Shown here: positions 1 to 6,785 of the stretch, piece after piece
Layout of the letters: every line of letters begins with the position of its first letter
Numbering within the stretch: the stretch's first letter is position 1
IMG/VR virus record: IMGVR_UViG_2563366923_000007
Strand: one strand, 5' to 3'
Origin: a virus
Lineage: Duplodnaviria; Heunggongvirae; Uroviricota; Caudoviricetes
Length of the DNA stretch: 6,785 nt
Program-made: the position numbers and the translations under genes
Notes under the pieces: generated by a model
What the model was told of the DNA's origin: nothing
The model's input: only the letters and a program-made list of their open reading frames with translations
The model's database searches: none

Positions 1-756
1 TTACGGGGTAATGCCAACCGCTGCCGCCACTTTGTCGCCACTAGTGCTTTGTTTTTCGAATTCATCTAAGGCTCTTTCAACATCAGAAAGATACTCTTTG
101 AATGAGTTCAAGATCATGCTTAACGAGCCCCCCATAAATAGGACCTGTTTTCCATCTTTTTTAAAAAAATCAGGATATTTTTCTATAAGTTCAATAATGC
201 TTTTAATATTTTGCCCATCGTTTTCTAAGTATTTTGCATCATTATGCGCACAACTGTTTCTTAATTTTGTTATTTTTTTGATATTCGAATAGTGGGATGT
301 TGACTTCATCCCTATCATTTTTTTGATAAATAGATGGCTCCTCTCAAATCCACTTCCTTTGAGATCTGAAACATTTATAGGAGAATGATGTCTATTAGCA
401 AAGTTGTTACAGAATTTTTCTATTTCGTGTTCAAAAATTCCGAATATAGTTAAGAATACTGACCTGCGGATAATACTTGGGTAGTATTCTAAAAACATTT
501 CATCGAGATCTAGCGATGAGCTGGTGAGTCCCATGTAATGATCAATTGACTGATATACACCATCTTCCGGAGATATTTCAATTATATATTCTTCAGGTCC
601 TTTGTCTTTATATTCTGCTATGCCCTTAGCGATTGATGATTCGCTATGAGTGATTAACGTCTCGATAATATCAAATGTTAAGGAGAAGTCGAATATTGGG
701 AATTGAAACAAAAACTTAACCATGCTTGAACCTTTAAGAATCTGATTTAGTAACAT
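1..756 (-). CDS. Hypothetical AT-rich cargo protein (251 aa) with a HEPN-like R-x4-H motif; candidate RNase-type defence or toxin protein
   Basis: Complete ORF; the stop codon TAA is the reverse complement of 1..3. The longest start (ATG 754..756) overlaps the int stop by 23 nt; an alternative ATG at 721..723 (M12) lies 10 nt after the int stop and has an AAAGG Shine-Dalgarno-like sequence about 7 nt upstream, giving 240 aa. Hand counts of a few 60-nt blocks give about 27-35% G+C versus about 55% in a block of the adjacent int. Motif KLRNSCAHND (aa 165-174) fits the HEPN R-[X]4-6-H signature, with an upstream helix-like segment FGIFEHEIEKF. I recognise no close family. Confidence 0.75.
   Translation of the reverse strand: MLLNQILKGSSMVKFLFQFPIFDFSLTFDIIETLITHSESSIAKGIAEYKDKGPEEYIIEISPEDGVYQSIDHYMGLTSSSLDLDEMFLEYYPSIIRRSVFLTIFGIFEHEIEKFCNNFANRHHSPINVSDLKGSGFERSHLFIKKMIGMKSTSHYSNIKKITKLRNSCAHNDAKYLENDGQNIKSIIELIEKYPDFFKKDGKQVLFMGGSLSMILNSFKEYLSDVERALDEFEKQSTSGDKVAAAVGITP
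19..40. repeat. attL core-like direct repeat (cgctgccgccactttgtcgcca)
   Basis: Position-by-position match to 3931..3952 with a single mismatch (c at 30 versus t at 3942). Flanking bases on both sides differ. The two copies bracket the whole phage-like block. Confidence 0.7.
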
Positions 757-1765
757 CCAAAGTTGCTAGTGGATTGAAACGAAGAGCTGTCTCTAAGTGA
801 TCAGGTGATAGATGAGCATAACGCATAGTCATTTTTATGTCGTGATGTCCGAGGATTTTTTGCAAAGCAAGGATGTTTCCACCCGACATCATGAAATGCG
901 CCGCAAACGTATGACGCAGAACGTGTGTAAGTTGACCGCGAGGGAGCACGATAGACGTTTTTTCCATCACGGATAAAAATTGAAAATAGCAGTCTGTGAA
1001 GAAATTGAACCCATCAAGCGCTATGATCTCTTCATAAAGCTCTTTACTGATAGGGATGCTTCTGTTTTTCTTCCCCTTCGTTCTTACAAAGGTAATTCGG
1101 TATTTGGTCACCTGTGATCGGGTAAGGTTTATTGCTTCTCGCCAGCGTGCGCCTGTGCTTAAGCATATCTTGACTACCAGTGCCAGAATTGGGTCCTGAC
1201 GTTTGCAATCATCCAGCAGTTCAACAATCTGCTCATGGGTAAGCCATGCCATCTCTTTTTCTGCGATGGTGAATTTTCGCATGTTCTCCAGTGGGTTTGG
1301 ATACGACCATTCGCCCAGGCGGGATAGTTCGCTAAAAACACTACTTAGATAGCTTTGCTCCAGGTTAATGGTGACCGGGCTGGCCCCTTTCTTCCATTTC
1401 TCGCTGAAGTAGATCTCACCTGTCAGTCGTTTATCTCGATAATGGGCAAACATTTTAGATGTGAGATCGGTTGCAAGGGGATTGCCCAGAGCGTCAACCA
1501 TCAGCAGCAATTTGTCATAGACATGCTGCCCAGCAGTCAGAGATTTACCATGTAGTTTGAACCATAGCTCAACCACGTCTTTCAGGGTTCGACGATCTAC
1601 TGATTCGCCCAGCCAGGGCTTTGCTTCGGTTTCTTCCATCGTGTGACGCTCAAAAGCCAGTGCTTCGCCTTTGGTGGCGAATTGTTTACGCACACGACGC
1701 CCACTACGTCCGGCGGGGTAACATTCGCAAAGCCATTTTCCTGTGGTGAGTTTTCGTACTGCCAT
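734..1765 (-). CDS. int: Phage tyrosine integrase (P2/186-like site-specific recombinase)
   Basis: Translation contains the tyrosine-recombinase signatures: STGARWREA (box I Arg), HVLRHTFA (H-x-x-R) and GHHDIKMTMRYAHL (catalytic Tyr). Likely start is ATG 1763..1765 (MAVRKLTTGKW..., 343 aa) with GGAGGG 7 nt upstream. The track ORF extends to 1843 but that upstream part has no Shine-Dalgarno sequence. Confidence 0.93.
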   Translation of the reverse strand: MAVRKLTTGKWLCECYPAGRSGRRVRKQFATKGEALAFERHTMEETEAKPWLGESVDRRTLKDVVELWFKLHGKSLTAGQHVYDKLLLMVDALGNPLATDLTSKMFAHYRDKRLTGEIYFSEKWKKGASPVTINLEQSYLSSVFSELSRLGEWSYPNPLENMRKFTIAEKEMAWLTHEQIVELLDDCKRQDPILALVVKICLSTGARWREAINLTRSQVTKYRITFVRTKGKKNRSIPISKELYEEIIALDGFNFFTDCYFQFLSVMEKTSIVLPRGQLTHVLRHTFAAHFMMSGGNILALQKILGHHDIKMTMRYAHLSPDHLETALRFNPLATLDVTKSDS

Positions 1766-1951
1766 AAAAAATGCCCTCCAATAGAGAGCATTTTTACTGT
1801 ATGTATAACCAGTGTCAATGTATGAAATCTTGCGACCATACATCTCACTGAAGCCATAATGAAGTTGGCTATTTTTTGCTATGTGAGTATGTGACTTTTG
1901 CGGTTAGCCTGCGGCTCATTGTTATATTAGGCGCAGATATAAAAGCAAAAA

Positions 1952-2143
1952 TTATCGCGAGTTTTTAGTACAGATTTTTTTTGATTTACTAATAGTTCCA
2001 TCATTGCAAACGAACTTTCCATCGGAGGTACAGTGAGAGACACCTCCCTTTTTCCCAGAACAAGGATAATTTTTAGCATAGGTAGTTAGTGGGTTTAATA
2101 ACAAAGAGCATGATAAAACCACAAAAAATACCTTACCAAGCAT
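1952..2143 (-). CDS. Small secreted Cys-rich, Lys-rich protein (63 aa precursor; predicted signal peptide, mature about 40 aa with 4 Cys)
   Basis: ATG at 2141..2143 is preceded by GGGAGG about 5 nt upstream, directly after the cI stop at 2159..2161, so it is probably co-transcribed with cI and int. N-terminus [23 protein letters not shown] has the n/h/c-region look of an SPase I signal peptide. Mature part [40 protein letters not shown]. Moderately AT-rich. Confidence 0.6.
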
Positions 2144-2158
2144 AGTTTCCTCCCGGTA

Positions 2159-2728
2159 TTACCTAACGTACTTAATTGTTAAACTTATAATTTTTCCAAT
2201 TATTTCAACATCTTCTATCTTGCACTCGAAGGCTCTGTTTCCACCTTCAACGAAGATTCTTCCACCGGGTAAACGAGTAATGTCGCGGATTGTTATTTCG
2301 CCATCAATACTTATTACCCATTTACCATCACGTATATCATCAAATTCTTTATCACAAATAAATTCAGAATTGTTATCTGTGATGACAAAAGGTTTTTTAA
2401 ACGTAGAGGGTAGAAATCCCTTATCAAAAATATAAAAACCGTCTTCACGCAAGGCACCATCAGATAATACATATTTAGCAACTTCCATCGTATTTGTATT
2501 ACCTGAAGTTTGCTTTGAACCATGTCCAGTTGTGAGCCAATTAAGCGAGGTGCCCGTTTCAAGGGCGCACTGGATTACCCATTCTGCTGGGAATGAGTCA
2601 CGCATGTAGCGTGTAGCGAGTGTACTTTTAGAGATTCCTAAATGATCGCACAACGCCTGTCGAGTTTTGAATCCATAAGCTTCTACCATGCGCTCTATAG
2701 CGCCTCGTCCGCCTTTCTCCAAATTCAT
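2159..2728 (-). CDS. cI: Phage 186 CI-like immunity repressor (N-terminal HTH, C-terminal oligomerisation domain)
   Basis: About 190 aa, matching the size of 186 CI. Shows the N-terminal pattern EAYGF...LCDHLGISKSTLATRY and the C-terminal RLPGGRIFVEGG...FEC that I recall for 186 CI-type repressors. Sits divergent to an Apl/Cox-like gene and upstream of int, as in 186. Likely start is ATG 2726..2728 (GGAG 5 nt upstream); the track begins at GTG 2734. Confidence 0.8.
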   Translation of the reverse strand: MNLEKGGRGAIERMVEAYGFKTRQALCDHLGISKSTLATRYMRDSFPAEWVIQCALETGTSLNWLTTGHGSKQTSGNTNTMEVAKYVLSDGALREDGFYIFDKGFLPSTFKKPFVITDNNSEFICDKEFDDIRDGKWVISIDGEITIRDITRLPGGRIFVEGGNRAFECKIEDVEIIGKIISLTIKYVR

Positions 2729-2853
2729 GGTCACTCCAAGTGAACTTTTATCTTAACGATTTCATCGTGCGATCGTATGTTTATGGTGTTCACAAAATAC
2801 AAACGATCCGTATTCGTCCTGATTAATCATCATTAAACGAGGAATGTTGCATC
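2729..2853. promoter_or_regulatory. Lysis/lysogeny switch region between cI and the apl-like gene; candidate rightward lytic promoter and operator repeats
   Basis: 125-bp divergent intergenic region. Candidate sigma70 promoter on the + strand: TTAACG (2753..2758), 17-bp spacer, TATGTT (2776..2781). Inverted GTGAAC (2740..2745) / GTTCAC (2788..2793) pair. Repeated ATCGT (2764..2768, 2772..2776) and ACGAT (2756..2760, 2803..2807). Two GATC sites. Not verified. Confidence 0.4.
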
Positions 2854-3075
2854 ATGAGACCTAACATTTCAATCACTCTTACCACGCCTCATGTGACTAT
2901 TGAACGCTATAGCGAGCTGACAGGACTGTCCATCGATACCATCAATGACATGTTGGCTGATGGACGCCTTATCCGTCACCGTTTGCGCAAAGATAAAAAA
3001 CGCGAAAAAGTGATGATCAACATAGCAGCCATGACCGTTGATGCGCTTTCAGAATGCAATCTAAACCTTAATTAG
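2854..3075 (+). CDS. Apl/Cox-like small DNA-binding protein (excisionase and lytic-switch regulator class), 73 aa
   Basis: First gene of the rightward operon, divergent from cI, which is the position of apl in 186 and cox in P2. GAGGA lies 10 nt upstream of the ATG. HTH-like segment [23 protein letters not shown]. Assignment is by synteny and size, not sequence identity. Confidence 0.55.
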
Positions 3076-3107
3076 TTCGATTCTGAAATACATCAGAGGC
3101 ATTGACC

Positions 3108-3332
3108 ATGTTTGATTACCAAGTTTCCAAACATCCACATTTTGATGAAGCCTGTCGTGCATTTGCACTGCGCCACAATCTGGTGCAACTGGCAGAACGT
3201 GCAGGCATGAATGTGCAGATTCTGCGGAACAAGCTGAACCCAGCTCAGCCTCATTTATTAACCGCACCAGAAATCTGGCTGCTTACCGATCTGACTGAAG
3301 ATTCAACGCTGGTACCTGGTGGGGACGGATGA
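3108..3332 (+). pseudogene. CII-like HTH regulator, N-terminal fragment (about 74 aa) truncated by an internal prophage deletion
   Basis: ATG 3108 with GAGG 8 nt upstream (track starts at TTG 3102). HTH-like segment [20 protein letters not shown]. Lies immediately downstream of apl, as cII does in 186 (169 aa from memory). The ORF ends after ...DSTLVPGGDG, where the frame runs into gpD-like sequence in another frame. Confidence 0.5.
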
Positions 3333-3621
3333 AAACGTGCTGGTACTTAATCGCACTTATGCCAACCGGAGCAACGCCGAACGAGCGGCAAAAATGCAGT
3401 GGGAACGCCTGCAACGCGGCGTTGCGTCATTCTCGCTACAACTGGCGGAAGGGCGGGCAGATCTCTACACGGAAATGCCAGTGAAAGTCAGTGGCTTTAA
3501 ACAGCCGATAGATGATGCGGAATGGACCATTACGACTCTGACACATACTGTCAGCCCGGATAACGGTTTTACAACCAGTATTGAACTCGAAGTGAAGATT
3601 GATGATTTCGAAATGGAATGA
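3319..3621 (+). pseudogene. Phage tail / late-control protein D (gpD family), C-terminal fragment of about 100 aa
   Basis: The frame is open from 3295 after a TGA at 3292..3294 and has no credible start or Shine-Dalgarno sequence. It sits immediately upstream of ogr, as D does in P2/186 (full-length D is about 390 aa). The C-terminal sequence ...WERLQRGVASF...VSGF...WTIT..THT...GFTTSIELEV is consistent with my recollection of the gpD family. Confidence 0.6.
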
Positions 3622-3646
3622 TTCTTCGCAATGGAGAACTTTTAAG

Positions 3647-3674
3647 TTTGCAAAATGGAATAATAAGGTATCAT
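3647..3674 (+). promoter_or_regulatory. Candidate sigma70 promoter for ogr
   Basis: TTTGCA (3647..3652), 16-bp spacer, TATCAT (3669..3674), then GGGGAG (3696..3701) and the ATG at 3712. Hexamer match only. Confidence 0.35.
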
Positions 3675-3711
3675 TATTGTGAATTTAGCAAAAATGGGGA
3701 GAACTCGAAAA

Positions 3712-3930
3712 ATGATGATTTGCCCACTGTGTGGAAGTGCCGCCCATACTCGCAGCAGTTTTCAGGTATCTTCATTGACCAAAGAGCGTTACAACCAGTG
3801 CCAGAACATTAACTGCAGCCATACTTTTGTTACCCATGAAACTTTTGTTCGTTCGATTGCAACGCCAAAAGAGTCAAATCCGGTTCAGCCGCATCCAATG
3901 AAATCAGGACAGGTGGCGCTCTCTCTTTGA
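3712..3930 (+). CDS. ogr: Ogr/B/Delta-family zinc-finger late-gene transcriptional activator (72 aa)
   Basis: MMICPLCGSAAH...KERYNQCQNINCSHTF... carries the C-x2-C ... C-x4-C zinc-finger spacing and the KERY(H/N)QCQN(V/I)NCS core typical of P2 Ogr. Start ATG 3712 has GGGGAG 10 nt upstream; the track start at GTG 3679 would add 11 residues. The stop TGA at 3928..3930 directly abuts the attR core. Confidence 0.88.
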   Translation: MMICPLCGSAAHTRSSFQVSSLTKERYNQCQNINCSHTFVTHETFVRSIATPKESNPVQPHPMKSGQVALSL

Positions 3931-3952
3931 CGCTGCCGCCATTTTGTCGCCA
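3931..3952. repeat. attR core-like direct repeat (cgctgccgccattttgtcgcca)
   Basis: 21/22 identical to 19..40. Immediately followed by chromosomal sequence leading into ybjL. Confidence 0.7.
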
Positions 3953-4004
3953 TCGTTAAAAAGCAGTGCTTCTAACATCATGATTTTAAAAGGCATAAAT
4001 TTCA

Positions 4005-4053
4005 GACAACAAAAAACCCATCAACCTTGAACCGAAATGGCGGGGTTGATGGG
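4005..4053 (-). terminator. Rho-independent terminator downstream of ybjL
   Basis: 10-bp stem CCCATCAACC (4017..4026) pairs with GGTTGATGGG (4044..4053), 17-nt loop. On the minus strand the stem is followed by TTTTTTGTTG (complement of 4007..4016). Lies about 110 nt after the ybjL stop. Confidence 0.55.
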
Positions 4054-4165
4054 CTCCACAAAATGGGGACATCAAAGAAAAGCAGTGGCACTAATTAAGA
4101 CTGATGCCCTGCGGAAAAGTTCTGCGGTTGTGCAAAAAAATTTCATTTTCAGGGCAACTTCAGTT

Positions 4166-5851
4166 TTATCCTAATCCTGGCCATACCATGACGATGATTG
4201 TCCCTGCCAGCGTCAGCAGGACGTTGGCGATTGCATAGGTGCCCGCATAGCCCAGCGCCGGGATGTTACTGCGAGCTGTATCACTGATGATCTCCATTGC
4301 CGGCGCGCAGGTACGTGCGCCCATCATTGCGCCGAACAACAGCGCGCGGTTCATTCGCAATACATAAGCACCGAACAAGAAACAGATAACCACGGGCACC
4401 AGACTGACAATCAATCCGGCAATCAACATCTGACCGCCAATCGCGCCCAGGCCGTTATTAATACCGCTACCGGCGCTCAGACCAACGCCTGCCATAAACA
4501 CCATCAAGCCGAACTCTTTCACCATGCTTAATGCACCCTGCGGAATGTAACCGAAGGTCGGGTGGTTAGCACGCATAAAGCCCAGCATAATTCCGGCGAA
4601 TAACAACCCGGCAGCGTTCCCCATGCCGAAACTGAATGTGCTGAACTGGAAGGTGATCATCCCGATCATCAGCCCAATAACAAAGAAGGCGCAGAATGCC
4701 AGCAGGTCAGTGACCTGGCTGTGAATCGAGATAAAGCCGATGCGATCGGCGATGGTTTTTACGCGGCGGGCATCGCCGCTGACTTGTAAAACGTCACCTT
4801 TGTTAAGCACGACGTTGTCATCTATCGGCATCTCAATCTGGCTACGAATGACGCGGTTAAGGAAGCAACCGTGATCGGTCAACTTCAGTTGTGCGAGACG
4901 TTTACCTACAGCGTTATGGTTTTTAACGACCACTTCTTCAGTGACGATACGCATGTCGAGAAGGTCACGATCGAAAACTTCTTTACCGTTACGGAAGCTG
5001 GGATCGAGTCGGGCATGGGCGTCGGGATAGCCTACCAACGCTATTTCATCGCCCATTTGTAGCACGGCATCACCGTCTGGATTTGCCAGAATCCCGTTAC
5101 GTCGAATACGTTCAATGTAGCAGCCGGTTTGTCGATAAATACCCAGTTCACGCAGATTTTTGCCGTCGGTCCAGGCCACCAGTTCCGGGCCGACGCGATA
5201 GGCGCGGATCACCGGTAAATAAACCTTACGGTTGGCATCAGTGTCCAGGCCACGTTCGCGGGCGATTTGCTGGGCGCTGGTCTGTAAGTCCTGATGCTGC
5301 AATTTCGGCAAGTAACGCGCACCAACAATCAAACTCACCAGACCGATTAAATAGGTTAAGGCATACCCGAGGCTCAGATTATCCAGTGCCAGTGAGAGCT
5401 GCCTGCTTTCCATGCCGGAATGACGCAGTGTATCGCCAGCACCGACCAGAACCGGTGTCGACGTCATAGAGCCTGCTAACATACCGGCCGTCAGGCCAAT
5501 ATCCCAGCCAAACAGCTTACCTAACCCTAAGGCGATCACCAGCGCACTGCCAACCATCACCAGTGCTAACATTAGGTAATTTTTCCCATCGCGAAAAAAA
5601 ATGGAAAAAAAGTTCGGTCCGGCTTCGACCCCGACGCAGAAAATAAACAGCATAAAGCCAAGATTAAGCGCATCGGTGTTAATGCTGAAATGTTGTTGGC
5701 CTAATAACAGCGATACGACTAAAACGCCAATGGAATTACCCAGTTGGATCGAACCAAGTCGTAACTTTCCGAGACATAGCCCAAGCGCGAGGACCACAAA
5801 TAATAACAGAATGTAATTCCCATTTAACAATTCGGCGACGTTTATATTCAC
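4166..5851 (-). CDS. ybjL: Putative transporter YbjL (AAE-family membrane protein with central cytoplasmic domains), 561 aa
   Basis: Full-length translation [29 protein letters not shown]... matches my recollection of E. coli YbjL in length and sequence. Hydrophobic N- and C-terminal halves with a central soluble region. Start is GTG per the track. Confidence 0.88.
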
Positions 5852-6120
5852 GGAGGCTAACTTCTTGTTTACTAGTAAGCTGTTGAAAGAAATGGTAATT
5901 TACGATAATGTTTTTTACCAGAATTCAGGGCGCAGATTCATTCAGCGCACCTAAACGATAGTAAAGTAACAATATATTTTACTAGTGTAATCACATTAGG
6001 TATCAACGGCTATATGAATTGCGTTGGCCTATATTAGCATGGAATGCGAAGCGGCTTTATCTTACTGAACGCCACACTGGCGAAAAATGTGTTCGATAGA
6101 CGCAGTGTCAGGAGGAACGA

Positions 6121-6498
6121 GTGAAACATAAACAACGTTGGGCGGGGGCAATCTGCTGTTTTGTCCTCTTCATTGTGGTGTGCCTTTTTCTGGCGACGCA
6201 CATGAAAGGCGCTTTTCGGGCTGCCGGGCATCCTGAAATCGGCTTGCTATTTTTCATTCTTCCTGGAGCAGTCGCCAGCTTCTTTTCACAGCGTAGAGAA
6301 GTCCTGAAACCTCTGTTTGGCGCAATGCTGGCGGCACCCTGTTCGATGCTCATTATGCGGCTGTTTTTTTCACCGACGCGCTCATTCTGGCAAGAGCTGG
6401 CATGGTTATTAAGTGCGGTGTTCTGGTGTGCGCTGGGGGCACTGTGTTTCTTATTTATCAGTAGTTTGTTTAAACCACAGCACAGAAAAAATCAGTAA
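6121..6498 (+). CDS. ybjM: Inner-membrane protein YbjM (125 aa)
   Basis: GTG start at 6121 with GGAGG 5 nt upstream. Hydrophobic, multi-helix translation MKHKQRWAGAICCFVLFIVV.... Divergent from ybjL and convergent with grxA, as in E. coli K-12. Confidence 0.82.
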   Translation: MKHKQRWAGAICCFVLFIVVCLFLATHMKGAFRAAGHPEIGLLFFILPGAVASFFSQRREVLKPLFGAMLAAPCSMLIMRLFFSPTRSFWQELAWLLSAVFWCALGALCFLFISSLFKPQHRKNQ

Positions 6499-6527: not shown

Positions 6528-6785
6528 TCAGGCGTCCAGATTTTCTTTCACCCATGCAGCAAAATCGGTATAGCCGCCGATATGTTGCTGATCGACAAAA
6601 ATCTGCGGCACGGTTTCTACGGGTTTACCTGCCTTTTGTTGTAGATCTTCTTTAGTGATCCCTTCCGCACGAATATCTACATAGTGATACTGAAAATCAT
6701 CGTGTTCATTGCTCAATTTCTCAGCCAGATCTTTTGCACGCACACAGTAAGGGCAACCCGGACGACCAAAAATAACGGTTTGCAT
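6528..6785 (-). CDS. grxA: Glutaredoxin 1 (85 aa)
   Basis: MQTVIFGRPGCPYCVRAKDLAEKL... with the CPYC active site and length of E. coli Grx1. The start codon is the last three bases of the window. Confidence 0.92.
   Translation of the reverse strand: MQTVIFGRPGCPYCVRAKDLAEKLSNEHDDFQYHYVDIRAEGITKEDLQQKAGKPVETVPQIFVDQQHIGGYTDFAAWVKENLDA

Follow-up and report, generated by a model that had tools for sequence, protein, structure and literature searches.

Between the integrase gene and the attachment site of a P2/186-like prophage lies an AT-rich open reading frame (ORF), at a place where int would normally abut att. What does this ORF encode, and why is it there? The original prediction, made from the letters of the DNA, saw in it a HEPN-like cargo gene that could act as a single-gene abortive-infection or toxin module. 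We followed up this prediction across the whole 6,785-nucleotide (nt) stretch of DNA, referred to below as the window. It holds an approximately 4-kb remnant of a defective, rybB-integrated P2/186-like prophage of E. coli that has lost all of its structural genes.

Gene extent and integration site

The minus-strand frame is open over positions 1 to 756 with its stop codon at 1 to 3, as predicted, but the proposed 251-amino-acid (aa) product is only the longest mechanical ORF. The HEPN-like cargo gene occupies positions 1 to 723 (minus strand; start ATG at 721 to 723) and encodes a protein of 240 aa. This start is backed by the homologues, which are about 240 aa each and all begin with MVKF or MVKL. 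In addition, the RefSeq coding sequence of WP_000238244.1 in locus L001 is 723 nt long and has the same extent, while one database entry (WP_250185692.1) has the 251-aa form. The in-frame upstream ATG (754 to 756, minus strand), which yields the longer frame, reaches into the 3' end of int and is probably unused.

The cargo gene is real and under purifying selection, with dN/dS values of about 0.1 (0.11 in the comparison with L023 and 0.08 in that with L024); the value for int is similar, at 0.06. Full-length homologues of the 240-aa protein occur in many genera, and the family of approximately 230-aa proteins comprises at least 2129 clusters at 50% identity. The gene itself is carried by 25 of 5426 E. 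coli genomes, and a tblastn search with the protein against 50,697 sequenced phage genomes gave zero matches. A literature search returned no experimental report on any family member, and the accession of the protein appeared in none of the papers searched.

Comparison with the empty site of E. coli K-12, in which rcdA is followed after 19 nt by rybB, placed the true att core, AACAAAAAACCCAT, at the 3' end and terminator of this small RNA gene. The attR copy of the core lies at positions 4008 to 4021, mapped from the prophage junction, the empty site and the Rfam RybB match (105 bits) that defines the sRNA gene at 4008 to 4086 on the minus strand. The attL copy falls outside the window, with its end 74 nt left of position 1. 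The ORF thus does lie between int and attL, as had been claimed, but the direct repeat that had been taken for attL is something else. This 22-nt repeat, CGCTGCCGCCAYTTTGTCGCCA, has a left copy at positions 19 to 40, within the 3'-terminal part of the ORF in a phage-internal remnant of the int tail, and a right copy at 3931 to 3952, directly after the ogr stop codon and 55 nt from the true core; the two are identical at 21 of 22 positions. When the repeat was used as an att core, the attB rebuilt from it was absent from E. coli genomes, with matches only to its rybB-side half. A 243-aa variant of the ORF, read from an attP form, had been built on this wrong core and was discarded; it is moot because the ORF proves to be wholly phage DNA once the true core is known.

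Cassette boundaries and operon context

The P2/186-type tyrosine integrase (343 aa) is encoded at positions 734 to 1765 on the minus strand (Pfam Int_N, 2e-32; Phage_integrase, 8e-22). Its stop codon occupies 734 to 736 and the ATG at 721 to 723 comes 10 nt later, preceded by an AGG (TAA AGGTTCAAGC ATG), a spacing that the original prediction had read correctly. The C-terminal tail of the integrase, DVTKSDS, is specific to the cassette. In an empty-slot relative (L016), int ends with PLATLPSGDKVAAAVGITP directly before its stop codon, and the alignment with the window int diverges after PLATL. The lost ancestral end is found at positions 1 to 45 (minus strand, 58% G+C), where the cargo ORF now has its stop and the codons for its final 13 residues, SGDKVAAAVGITP; this stretch is matched in more than 1100 E. 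coli genomes regardless of the cargo. Between these points lies the inserted cassette (46 to 733, minus strand), made up of a new int tail and stop, the 10-nt AGG spacer and the body of the HEPN-like ORF. By sequence comparison, the insertion point of the cassette lies within the 3' end of int, and it is the old int tail that now supplies the cargo ORF with its last 13 codons and its stop. The ORF had also been described as far more AT-rich than int, at about 30% versus 55% G+C. The direction of this difference is right, but the values are 33.1% for the cassette and 34.4% for the ORF versus 46.4% for int.

On the same strand, int is preceded by a YdcA-family small ORF (1952 to 2143; NCBIfam PRK10040) and the gene for a CI repressor (2159 to 2728; Pfam Phage_CI_repr and Phage_CI_C). 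The minus strand has no terminator-like site from the end of int to the ORF. A promoter scan gave no evidence for a cassette-specific promoter, since σ70-like sites were fewer than in shuffled sequences. The cI gene, the YdcA-like ORF and int are presumed to form a lysogenic operon that would also transcribe the cargo gene.

The cargo protein resembles HEPN RNases

The HEPN superfamily (Pfam clan CL0291) is recognized by an R-x4-6-H motif, commonly R-[NHQD]-x3-H. Its RNases are metal-independent endoribonucleases in which arginine and histidine form a composite site across a dimer. Both segments cited in the original prediction are present: KLRNSCAHND at residues 164 to 173 and FEHEIEKF at residues 108 to 115 of the 251-aa reading. 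R166 and H171 of that reading correspond to R155 and H160 of the 240-aa protein, where R155-N-S-C-A-H160 (positions 244 to 261, minus strand) makes up an R-N-x3-H signature at which all HEPN profile matches are anchored. FEHEIEKF becomes residues 97 to 104 (412 to 435, minus strand), within a long helix of residues 73 to 111.

The motif by itself says little. R-x4-6-H is weak evidence, as 45% of shuffled versions of the protein contain it, while RNxxxH arises in 0.9%. Because such a motif can appear by chance, it is the conservation of R, N and H that carries the HEPN case. In an alignment of 87 diverse homologues, R155 is present in all 87, N156 in 84 and H160 in 86, and this near-absolute conservation holds among homologues that are just 20 to 49% identical. 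According to Anantharaman et al. 2013, such conservation in R-N-x3-H is expected in catalytic HEPN RNases. Outside the motif, R86, E98, E28 and C105 are near invariant. R86 (87/87) falls, together with P82 (85/87), in a second family signature, PSIIRRS (residues 82 to 88; positions 460 to 480, minus strand), and E98 (86/87) in FEHEIEKF.

The profile search proposed with the prediction returned HEPN families, yet the window protein itself reached no curated cut-off. It matched RiboL-PSP-HEPN, Abi_2, PADLOC HEC-01A, Cas13a and RTasHEPN, with scores of 17.4 bits for RiboL-PSP (Pfam PF18735 HEPN_RiboL-PSP; gathering threshold, 28.4 bits) and 14.4 bits for Abi_2 (cut-off, 25.6 bits). Ten diverse homologues checked singly against PF18735 gave 16 to 19 bits or no match, none of them at the cut-off. 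Across the family the picture is clearer. PADLOC RTasHEPN was matched in 64 of 87 members (best E value, 7.5e-10), and RiboL-PSP-HEPN in 17 of 28 and 19 of 87 members in two family scans (best E value, 4.2e-8), with alignments that in some members cover residues 56 to 204 and so extend beyond the motif. Other HEPN Pfam families matched were Abi_2, pEK499_p136, MAE_28990, AbiU2, Apea and Cthe2314. Seven Pfam families were matched by at least three members in either scan, all of them HEPN except for DUF6548 and FWWh. At the level of profiles, the predicted HEPN link of the window protein is significant by transitivity through its family.

Pfam, NCBIfam and PADLOC contain no dedicated model for this family, and the window protein had no match in NCBIfam. 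In PHROGs it matched phrog_21382, of unknown function (E value, 3e-9), and weakly the 'abortive infection' phrog_2158. A near-identical E. coli sequence is named 'Cthe-2314-like HEPN domain-containing protein' in UniRef. Profiles built from two family alignments (A1 and A2) gave only spurious coiled-coil and Cry-toxin matches among PDB sequences. A characterized non-defence protein, which the original prediction had named as contrary evidence, was found in neither the profile nor the PDB sequence searches.

The AF2 model (pLDDT, 86; pTM, 0.81) has an all-alpha, up-and-down helical bundle at its core and best resembles solved HEPN domains, with HepT toxins among the best structural matches, while a Foldseek search against the PDB gave nothing significant. 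The core is extended by an N-terminal helix and beta-hairpin and by a C-terminal hairpin and long helix; residues 230 to 240 have a pLDDT below 50 and form a disordered tail. A structure search of BFVD gave one uncharacterized Myoviridae protein (E value, 2.4e-4) and was uninformative. Taken with the family-wide profile matches and the conserved R, N and H, the helical model supports a HEPN-like, putatively RNase-type identity of the 240-aa protein. Of the contrary results that the original prediction had listed, none that computation can reach was obtained.

A variable slot and mobile relatives

That int normally abuts att was confirmed in related prophages, where 40 of 60 sampled sister junctions are contiguous. 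At least five different cassettes occupy the slot elsewhere, including genes for an 89-aa protein, a 110-aa protein (in BL21) and a DUF2971 protein, as well as a Panacea-antitoxin pair. A slot that is empty in most sisters and filled differently in the rest agrees with the idea of cargo. The gene is dispensable for phage biology, since about two-thirds of the sampled sister prophages lack any insert and the others hold unrelated cassettes. The 251-aa protein associated with Panacea in the same slot of strain LR-24 was tested as a possible homologue, a result that would have favoured a toxin, and is not homologous.

Homologues of the cargo protein are found in several mobile settings. In Enterobacter and Serratia they directly follow a P2-like int, and in Pantoea and Raoultella they adjoin a P4-like primase at the edge of the satellite. 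A Paraburkholderia homologue has a DUF4238 gene as its neighbour in the classical P2 GpA-portal hotspot, and a Vibrio homologue follows a type I restriction-modification (R-M) system with a convergent RVT_1 gene nearby. One homologue has psiB and ssb nearby in the leading region of a plasmid, and one distant homologue adjoins YefM-YoeB. No neighbour gene is constant in 12 contexts; DUF4238 is adjacent in two. A link to Dazbog, suggested by one weak PADLOC hit to DzbB and the DUF4238 neighbours, was rejected: the DUF4238 genes correspond to the single-gene system of that name, and DzbB is not matched by the HEPN-like proteins. From the recurrence of relatives in P2 and P4 hotspots, defence islands and plasmids, we infer a defence role by association only.

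Interpretation and alternatives

Our preferred reading, to which we assign a probability of roughly 60%, is that positions 1 to 723 encode a stand-alone HEPN defence protein, carried as exchangeable int-attL cargo of a rybB P2/186-like prophage. It is plausible, judging from sequence, that the gene is a candidate single-gene HEPN antiphage module of a familiar kind. The find is not conceptually surprising, because HEPN cargo in prophage hotspots is familiar and a near-identical sequence had already been labelled HEPN-like automatically. In the lysogen, the gene would share its transcript with cI and int, its translation would follow directly on that of int, and the protein would rest as an inactive oligomer. 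A component of an infecting phage would then trigger it to cut RNA (tRNA, rRNA or mRNA) through the composite R/H site, so that translation stops and the infection aborts.

The retention of this gene in a remnant stripped of all structural genes could also be explained by addiction: a HEPN toxin would stabilize the prophage remnant under the control of an unrecognized antitoxin (a small RNA, an antisense RNA or a host factor) and have no dedicated antiphage role. The HepT toxins among the structural matches, the Panacea-antitoxin pair in the same slot of another prophage and YefM-YoeB beside a distant homologue all fit such a module. Yet the 688-nt cassette is too small for a protein antitoxin, and across the contexts examined, neither MNT nor any other gene is a conserved partner. 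An antisense ORF at positions 11 to 292, considered as a hidden antitoxin, is open in close relatives only and broken in distant homologues. We regard the addiction account as improbable; toxin-antitoxin function and defence are, moreover, not mutually exclusive.

We see just as little chance that the protein serves the phage, either by RNA processing that tunes int and the lysogenic operon or in counter-defence or superinfection, instead of acting as an abortive-infection effector. The gene does stand directly downstream of int, probably in one transcript, and has the old int tail fused to it; plasmid leading regions, where one homologue lies, are better known for anti-defence genes. Against this, two-thirds of the sampled sisters do without any insert while others carry unrelated cassettes, and the family also occurs far from integrases, in the P2 GpA-portal hotspot, beside R-M systems and on plasmids. 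Some HEPN domains are not nucleases at all, such as those of sacsin and of the kanamycin-nucleotidyltransferase type, and a HEPN-like fold with a role in ligand or nucleotide binding or as a scaffold would sit well with sequence matches that all stay under curated thresholds. The near-absolute R, N and H among members sharing 20 to 49% identity make this quite improbable.

Returning to the defence reading, a more far-reaching version of it would make the family a distinct, self-contained HEPN sensor-effector class and would add a specific route of cassette exchange inside the int 3' end. As a joint claim this is speculative and rather unlikely. Under it, the N-terminal helix and beta-hairpin and the C-terminal hairpin and long helix of the model could recognize the trigger, and R86, E98 and C105 could be extra catalytic or regulatory residues. 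Exchange may proceed by insertion in the int 3' end, at a point upstream of an att-arm element that lies within the coding tail of int, and each cassette may bring a new integrase C terminus and can capture the old one.

Comparison with known systems

The HepT toxins of HepT-MntA (type VII toxin-antitoxin) systems and HI0074 are minimal HEPN domains of approximately 130 aa, always paired with an MNT nucleotidyltransferase antitoxin. HepT and HI0074 structures (PDB 1jog, 5yep, 7ae2 and 8xdj) share 8 to 12% sequence identity with the cargo protein. Whereas HepT-MntA has its MNT antitoxin adjacent, the neighbours of the cargo gene are int and the att site, and no MNT gene was found near it or near any homologue examined.

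The nearest sequence profiles, PF18735 HEPN_RiboL-PSP and PADLOC RTasHEPN, have the same RN-x3-H placement as the cargo family. RTasHEPN denotes HEPN proteins that accompany defence reverse transcriptases (cf. UG22, PMC9226505). The cargo protein differs in having no RidA/L-PSP domain, and a reverse transcriptase is not consistently adjacent, being represented only by RVT_1 in Vibrio.

The P2 int-att interval has been reported as a minor defence hotspot (PMC13586616), whose cargo resembles that described here in its position between integrase and att and in its variable occupancy. Our case documents how such a P2-like hotspot is built, by insertion within the integrase 3' end with the att-proximal 45 nt kept. 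Homologues are also found in the P2 and P4 hotspots of Rousset et al. 2022 (PMC9122126), namely, the GpA-portal hotspot and P4 satellite edges. The family is not among the systems tested in PMC13586616 or PMC9122126; the 'Putative HEPN' of Rousset et al. (pFR103, strain S88) was considered as a member and is an unrelated, longer protein.

The closest functional parallel is HepS, a solo HEPN protein of the Gifsy-1 prophage of Salmonella Typhimurium that both senses and kills (PMC13043305). It is from HepS that the scheme of a latent oligomer, a phage-protein trigger, RNA cleavage and abortive infection is borrowed, by analogy. A profile search of PDB sequences gave no sign of homology to HepS (STM14_3211; PDB 9oik) at E values up to 10. 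The motif is placed differently (R155-H160 versus R100-H105), the terminal extensions of the cargo protein are absent from HepS, and the phage backbone is a P2/186-like myovirus rather than a lambdoid phage. Nevertheless, both are single prophage-encoded proteins of approximately 220 to 240 aa that have a HEPN fold and carry an R-x4-H motif, known here from sequence and model, and both occupy an accessory slot of a temperate phage with no partner or inhibitor gene. If active, a widespread family that has no curated model would be added to the few HEPN defences in which a single protein must combine sensing and killing. With its compact 240-aa protein and well-understood phage backbone, this E. 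coli system would then offer a way to learn how solo HEPN RNases stay silent and what triggers them.

A conserved HEPN-like protein family

The cargo gene (positions 1-723, minus strand) is a real gene. The open reading frame (ORF), the 10-nt gap behind the int stop codon, both protein motifs and the contrast in base composition that had been reported were all found in the sequence. However, the encoded protein is 240 aa long, not 251 aa: it starts at the ATG at 721-723, where its homologues begin with MVKF or MVKL, in agreement with RefSeq entry WP_000238244.1. The cassette that contains the body of the ORF (46-733) is indeed AT-rich, although the difference is smaller than claimed (33% G+C versus 46% in int). 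Full-length homologues with 73 to 79% identity occur in Raoultella, Cronobacter, Phytobacter, Citrobacter, and Enterobacter, followed by homologues in Serratia, Pantoea, and Enterobacter (40 to 60%) and in Vibrio, Photobacterium, and Yersinia (42 to 46%). The dN/dS ratio equals 0.11 when the gene is compared with a 96%-identical copy (28 substitutions) and 0.08 for a copy of 78% identity; the adjacent int has 0.06. An exhaustive profile search yielded 2,129 cluster representatives at an E value of ≤1e-3 and 550 at ≤1e-10; nearly all full-length matches are 210 to 250 aa, with one full-length match each. A 93-codon ORF on the plus strand (11-292), antisense to the last third of the cargo gene, is open in relatives of 78 to 96% nucleotide identity but interrupted in more distant homologues, and so probably arises as a side effect of the sense frame.

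No match to the cargo protein was found in NCBIfam, nor any at or above cut-off in Pfam or PADLOC, and the protein fits no particular Pfam family. The HEPN-like character originally proposed is supported by weak but coherent matches to HEPN families below the cut-offs, a conserved motif, and a confident helical model. The weak matches, to RiboL-PSP-HEPN, Abi_2, HEC-01A, Cas13a, and RTasHEPN, all fall at residues 130 to 200, approximately. Among 28 close relatives, 17 match RiboL-PSP-HEPN and 9 match Abi_2, and others match the pEK499_p136, MAE_28990, AbiU2, Apea, and Cthe2314 HEPN families. In an alignment of 87 diverse members (20 to 49% identity to the query), 64 match PADLOC RTasHEPN (best E value, 7.5e-10) and 19 match RiboL-PSP-HEPN (best E value, 4.2e-8). 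For some members, the profile alignment spans residues 56 to 204 or the helix-2 region alone, so the HEPN likeness exceeds the motif. R86 and R155 are conserved in all 87 members, E28, E98, and H160 in 86, P82 in 85, N156 in 84, and C105 in 83. The AlphaFold2 model (pLDDT, 86; pTM, 0.81) predicts a helix (14-41), a hairpin (44-63), a long helix (73-111), two central helices (125-137 and 145-161, the latter bearing RNSCAH), a further helix (174-182), a second hairpin (187-196), and a C-terminal helix (200-235). UniRef gives the name "Cthe-2314-like HEPN domain-containing protein" to an E. coli sequence almost identical to the cargo protein and also to a homologue from Pantoea. The cargo protein thus very probably belongs to the HEPN superfamily.

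Prophage remnant and attachment site

The window represents the E. coli rcdA-ybjL region, with ybjL (4166-5851, minus strand), ybjM (6121-6498), grxA (6528-6785), and the small RNA gene rybB (4008-4086, minus strand; Rfam RF00110, 105 bits). To the left of rybB lies a P2/186-like prophage remnant of ~4.1 kb. The cargo ORF comes first in the remnant, followed by a P2-type integrase (734-1765; Int_N, 2e-32), a 63-aa YdcA-family ORF (1952-2143, minus strand), the CI repressor (2159-2728), and an apl/cox-like ORF (2854-3075). A truncated cII, matching positions 1 to 63 of 146 of Phage_CP76 and cut at about codon 72, is overlapped at its end, in another frame, by the last ~100 codons of gpD (both within 3102-3621); ogr follows, ending at 3930. 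Everything between the truncated cII and the gpD end is deleted, and ORF and profile annotation of the window found no replication or structural genes left in the remnant. Strain SHP24 has this same left end on a complete prophage. At the same locus in BL21(DE3), cII is similarly truncated. Insertion at rybB is known from E. coli W, B, and Crooks, whose P2-like prophages there are often defective (PMC3032704).

In the empty K-12 site, rcdA, 19 nt, and rybB follow in that order. Mapping of both junctions gave a 14-nt att core, AACAAAAAACCCAT, consisting of the rybB 3' end and terminator. The attR copy lies at 4008-4021, leaving RybB and its terminator intact, and the attL copy lies outside the window, its end 74 nt left of base 1. 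The ORF is therefore located between attL and int, as predicted, yet is wholly phage DNA. The "left direct repeat" proposed as att (19-40; twin at 3931-3952, 21/22 identical) is not the core: the attB rebuilt from this 22-nt repeat is absent from E. coli genomes, and the repeat was rejected. A terminator-like hairpin with a T-run spans the attL core downstream of the cargo ORF; here the phage supplies a new stem, AACCCGTTTACATAAATGGGTT, and T-run, giving a hybrid terminator (5913-5941 in the SHP24 locus).

The 22-nt repeat consists of two 8-mers with an 11-nt period, TGCCGCCA ytt TGTCGCCA. Relative to the core, its copies sit at about -55 and +92 nt in the attP form: one is part of the coding tail of int, and the second comes straight after the ogr stop codon. 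A second tandem pair, AAAACAATAAGTTAG, is found between the att core and the int tail (compare 5946-5982 in the SHP24 locus). Both look like arm sites for the recombinase or accessory factors. Because it lies within 1-45 with its twin across the core, the 22-nt repeat is a putative part of the attP arms, which would explain why insertions leave it untouched.

A variable slot within the 3' end of int

The chromosome of E. coli CFSAN061772 contains an ogr-attP-int junction (2782-4218 of that locus) in which about 165 nt separate ogr from int and the slot is empty, a sign that rybB harbours either a tandem of two P2-like prophages or a duplicated end. This junction served as a natural attP reference. 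Of 5,426 complete E. coli genomes, 1,122 contain the empty-slot junction sequence. Sixty junctions were sampled, spread over the ranks, and 40 of them were contiguous and hence empty, in line with the original prediction that int normally abuts att. Twelve, roughly a fifth, carried an insert of about 353 nt encoding an 89-aa protein (ECCHD184 locus, 2547-2816); four, BL21(DE3) among them, carried about 480 nt encoding a 110-aa protein (2657-2989 in BL21(DE3)); and four gave a larger split or weak match. Larger cassettes include a DUF2971 protein (L026, 5467-6219), a Panacea (SocA-like) antitoxin whose 251-aa partner is unannotated (LR-24, 5122-6350), likely a PanAT toxin-antitoxin pair, and the cargo gene itself, present in 25 of the 5,426 genomes at 99.3 to 100% identity. 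According to a survey published in 2026, 3% of P2 systems reside between int and att, a minor hotspot for defence (PMC13586616).

The empty-slot Int has 350 aa and ends in ...RFNPLATLPSGDKVAAAVGITP. In the window, Int ends in ...RFNPLATLDVTKSDS and the cargo protein in ...KQSTSGDKVAAAVGITP*. Comparison of these tails shows that the cassette was inserted behind codon L336, within the 3' end of int, and brought a new int tail, the stop codon, and the 10-nt spacer with its AGG. The cargo ORF stays in frame across the former int tail (1-45, 58% G+C), which is kept in about 1,100 genomes irrespective of cargo and is predicted to be disordered in the cargo protein (pLDDT of <50, residues 230 to 240). 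ECCHD184 has a different cassette at the identical insertion point and a third int tail, ...PLATLPTSIASF*. After ...PLATL, Int continues with PSGDKVAAAVGITP in the empty slot (CFSAN061772, 3166-3230), DVTKSDS with the HEPN-like cassette (window, 734-760), and PTSIASF with the 89-aa cassette (ECCHD184, 2875-2900). Swapping cargo thus rewrites the last 7 to 14 Int residues, apparently without harm.

The CI-int interval is a second variable slot among the compared loci. It holds the YdcA-family ORF in the window, a DUF4041/T5orf172 protein in ECCHD184 (3990-5045), two proteins and an ASCH protein beside the 96%-identical cargo copy (1677-3881), and a 289-aa protein in Serratia (3966-4835).

Genomic contexts and proposed function

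Homologues in Enterobacter (60% identity) and Serratia (45%) lie directly behind a P2-like int at the prophage edge; so does the 96%-identical copy, which another enterobacterium carries at the homologous locus on the rcdA side. In Pantoea and Raoultella they adjoin a P4-type primase at a satellite edge, and in Paraburkholderia the homologue occupies the classical GpA-portal hotspot of a P2-like prophage. Elsewhere, homologues follow a type I restriction-modification operon with a reverse-transcriptase gene close by (Vibrio), lie near an AAA_15/21 ATPase and a D12 methylase (Yersinia), or adjoin YefM-YoeB (Blastocatellia). No neighbour is constant across these contexts, so the unit is a single gene, and a role as an addiction toxin appears improbable. 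DUF4238, which has been validated as a single-gene defence (Rousset et al. 2022), is located directly upstream in a Raoultella P4-like satellite (4869-5876) and in an unrelated Paraburkholderia P2-like prophage (4783-5832). There is none beside the cargo gene in the window; the adjacency could be hotspot coincidence or functional pairing in one sub-lineage.

The family is also found on 136 plasmid records, once near psiB and ssb. A phage-serving or counter-defence role is likewise improbable. In P2 and 186, int is transcribed together with the repressor gene. Gene order, strand, the 10-nt gap, and a window scan that saw no terminator-like site between int and the cargo ORF suggest that the cargo gene would be expressed in the lysogen from the cI-int transcript, as does a promoter scan of the window, in which promoter-like sites were no commoner than chance. 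Translation just behind int may occur by re-initiation or from the gene's own AGG. The profile matches below cut-offs would speak for a non-catalytic HEPN-like protein, but the near-invariance of R155, N156, and H160 makes this reading improbable.

HEPN cargo in prophage hotspots and single-gene abortive-infection candidates are already well known, an earlier description of the int-att slot exists, and HEPN is hinted at by automated annotation. New are the proposed placement of a large family without a curated model in the HEPN superfamily, based on predicted structure and conservation, its recurring hotspot setting, the exact cassette anatomy (inserted inside int, whose tail it captured), and the correction of the att site to rybB. 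A conserved stand-alone HEPN-like protein occupies a swappable prophage slot. Taken as a whole, it is best read as a lysogen-expressed, phage-activated, RNA-cleaving protein that would abort infection, a reading to which we assign a probability of roughly 0.6. The model is taken from HepS, a solo HEPN abortive-infection protein of the Salmonella Gifsy-1 prophage (PMC13043305). By this analogy, the cargo protein would rest as an inactive oligomer, be activated by a component of the infecting phage, and cleave RNA to abort the infection, while sensing or regulation may fall to the elements that this family has added and to its invariant residues R86, E98, and C105.
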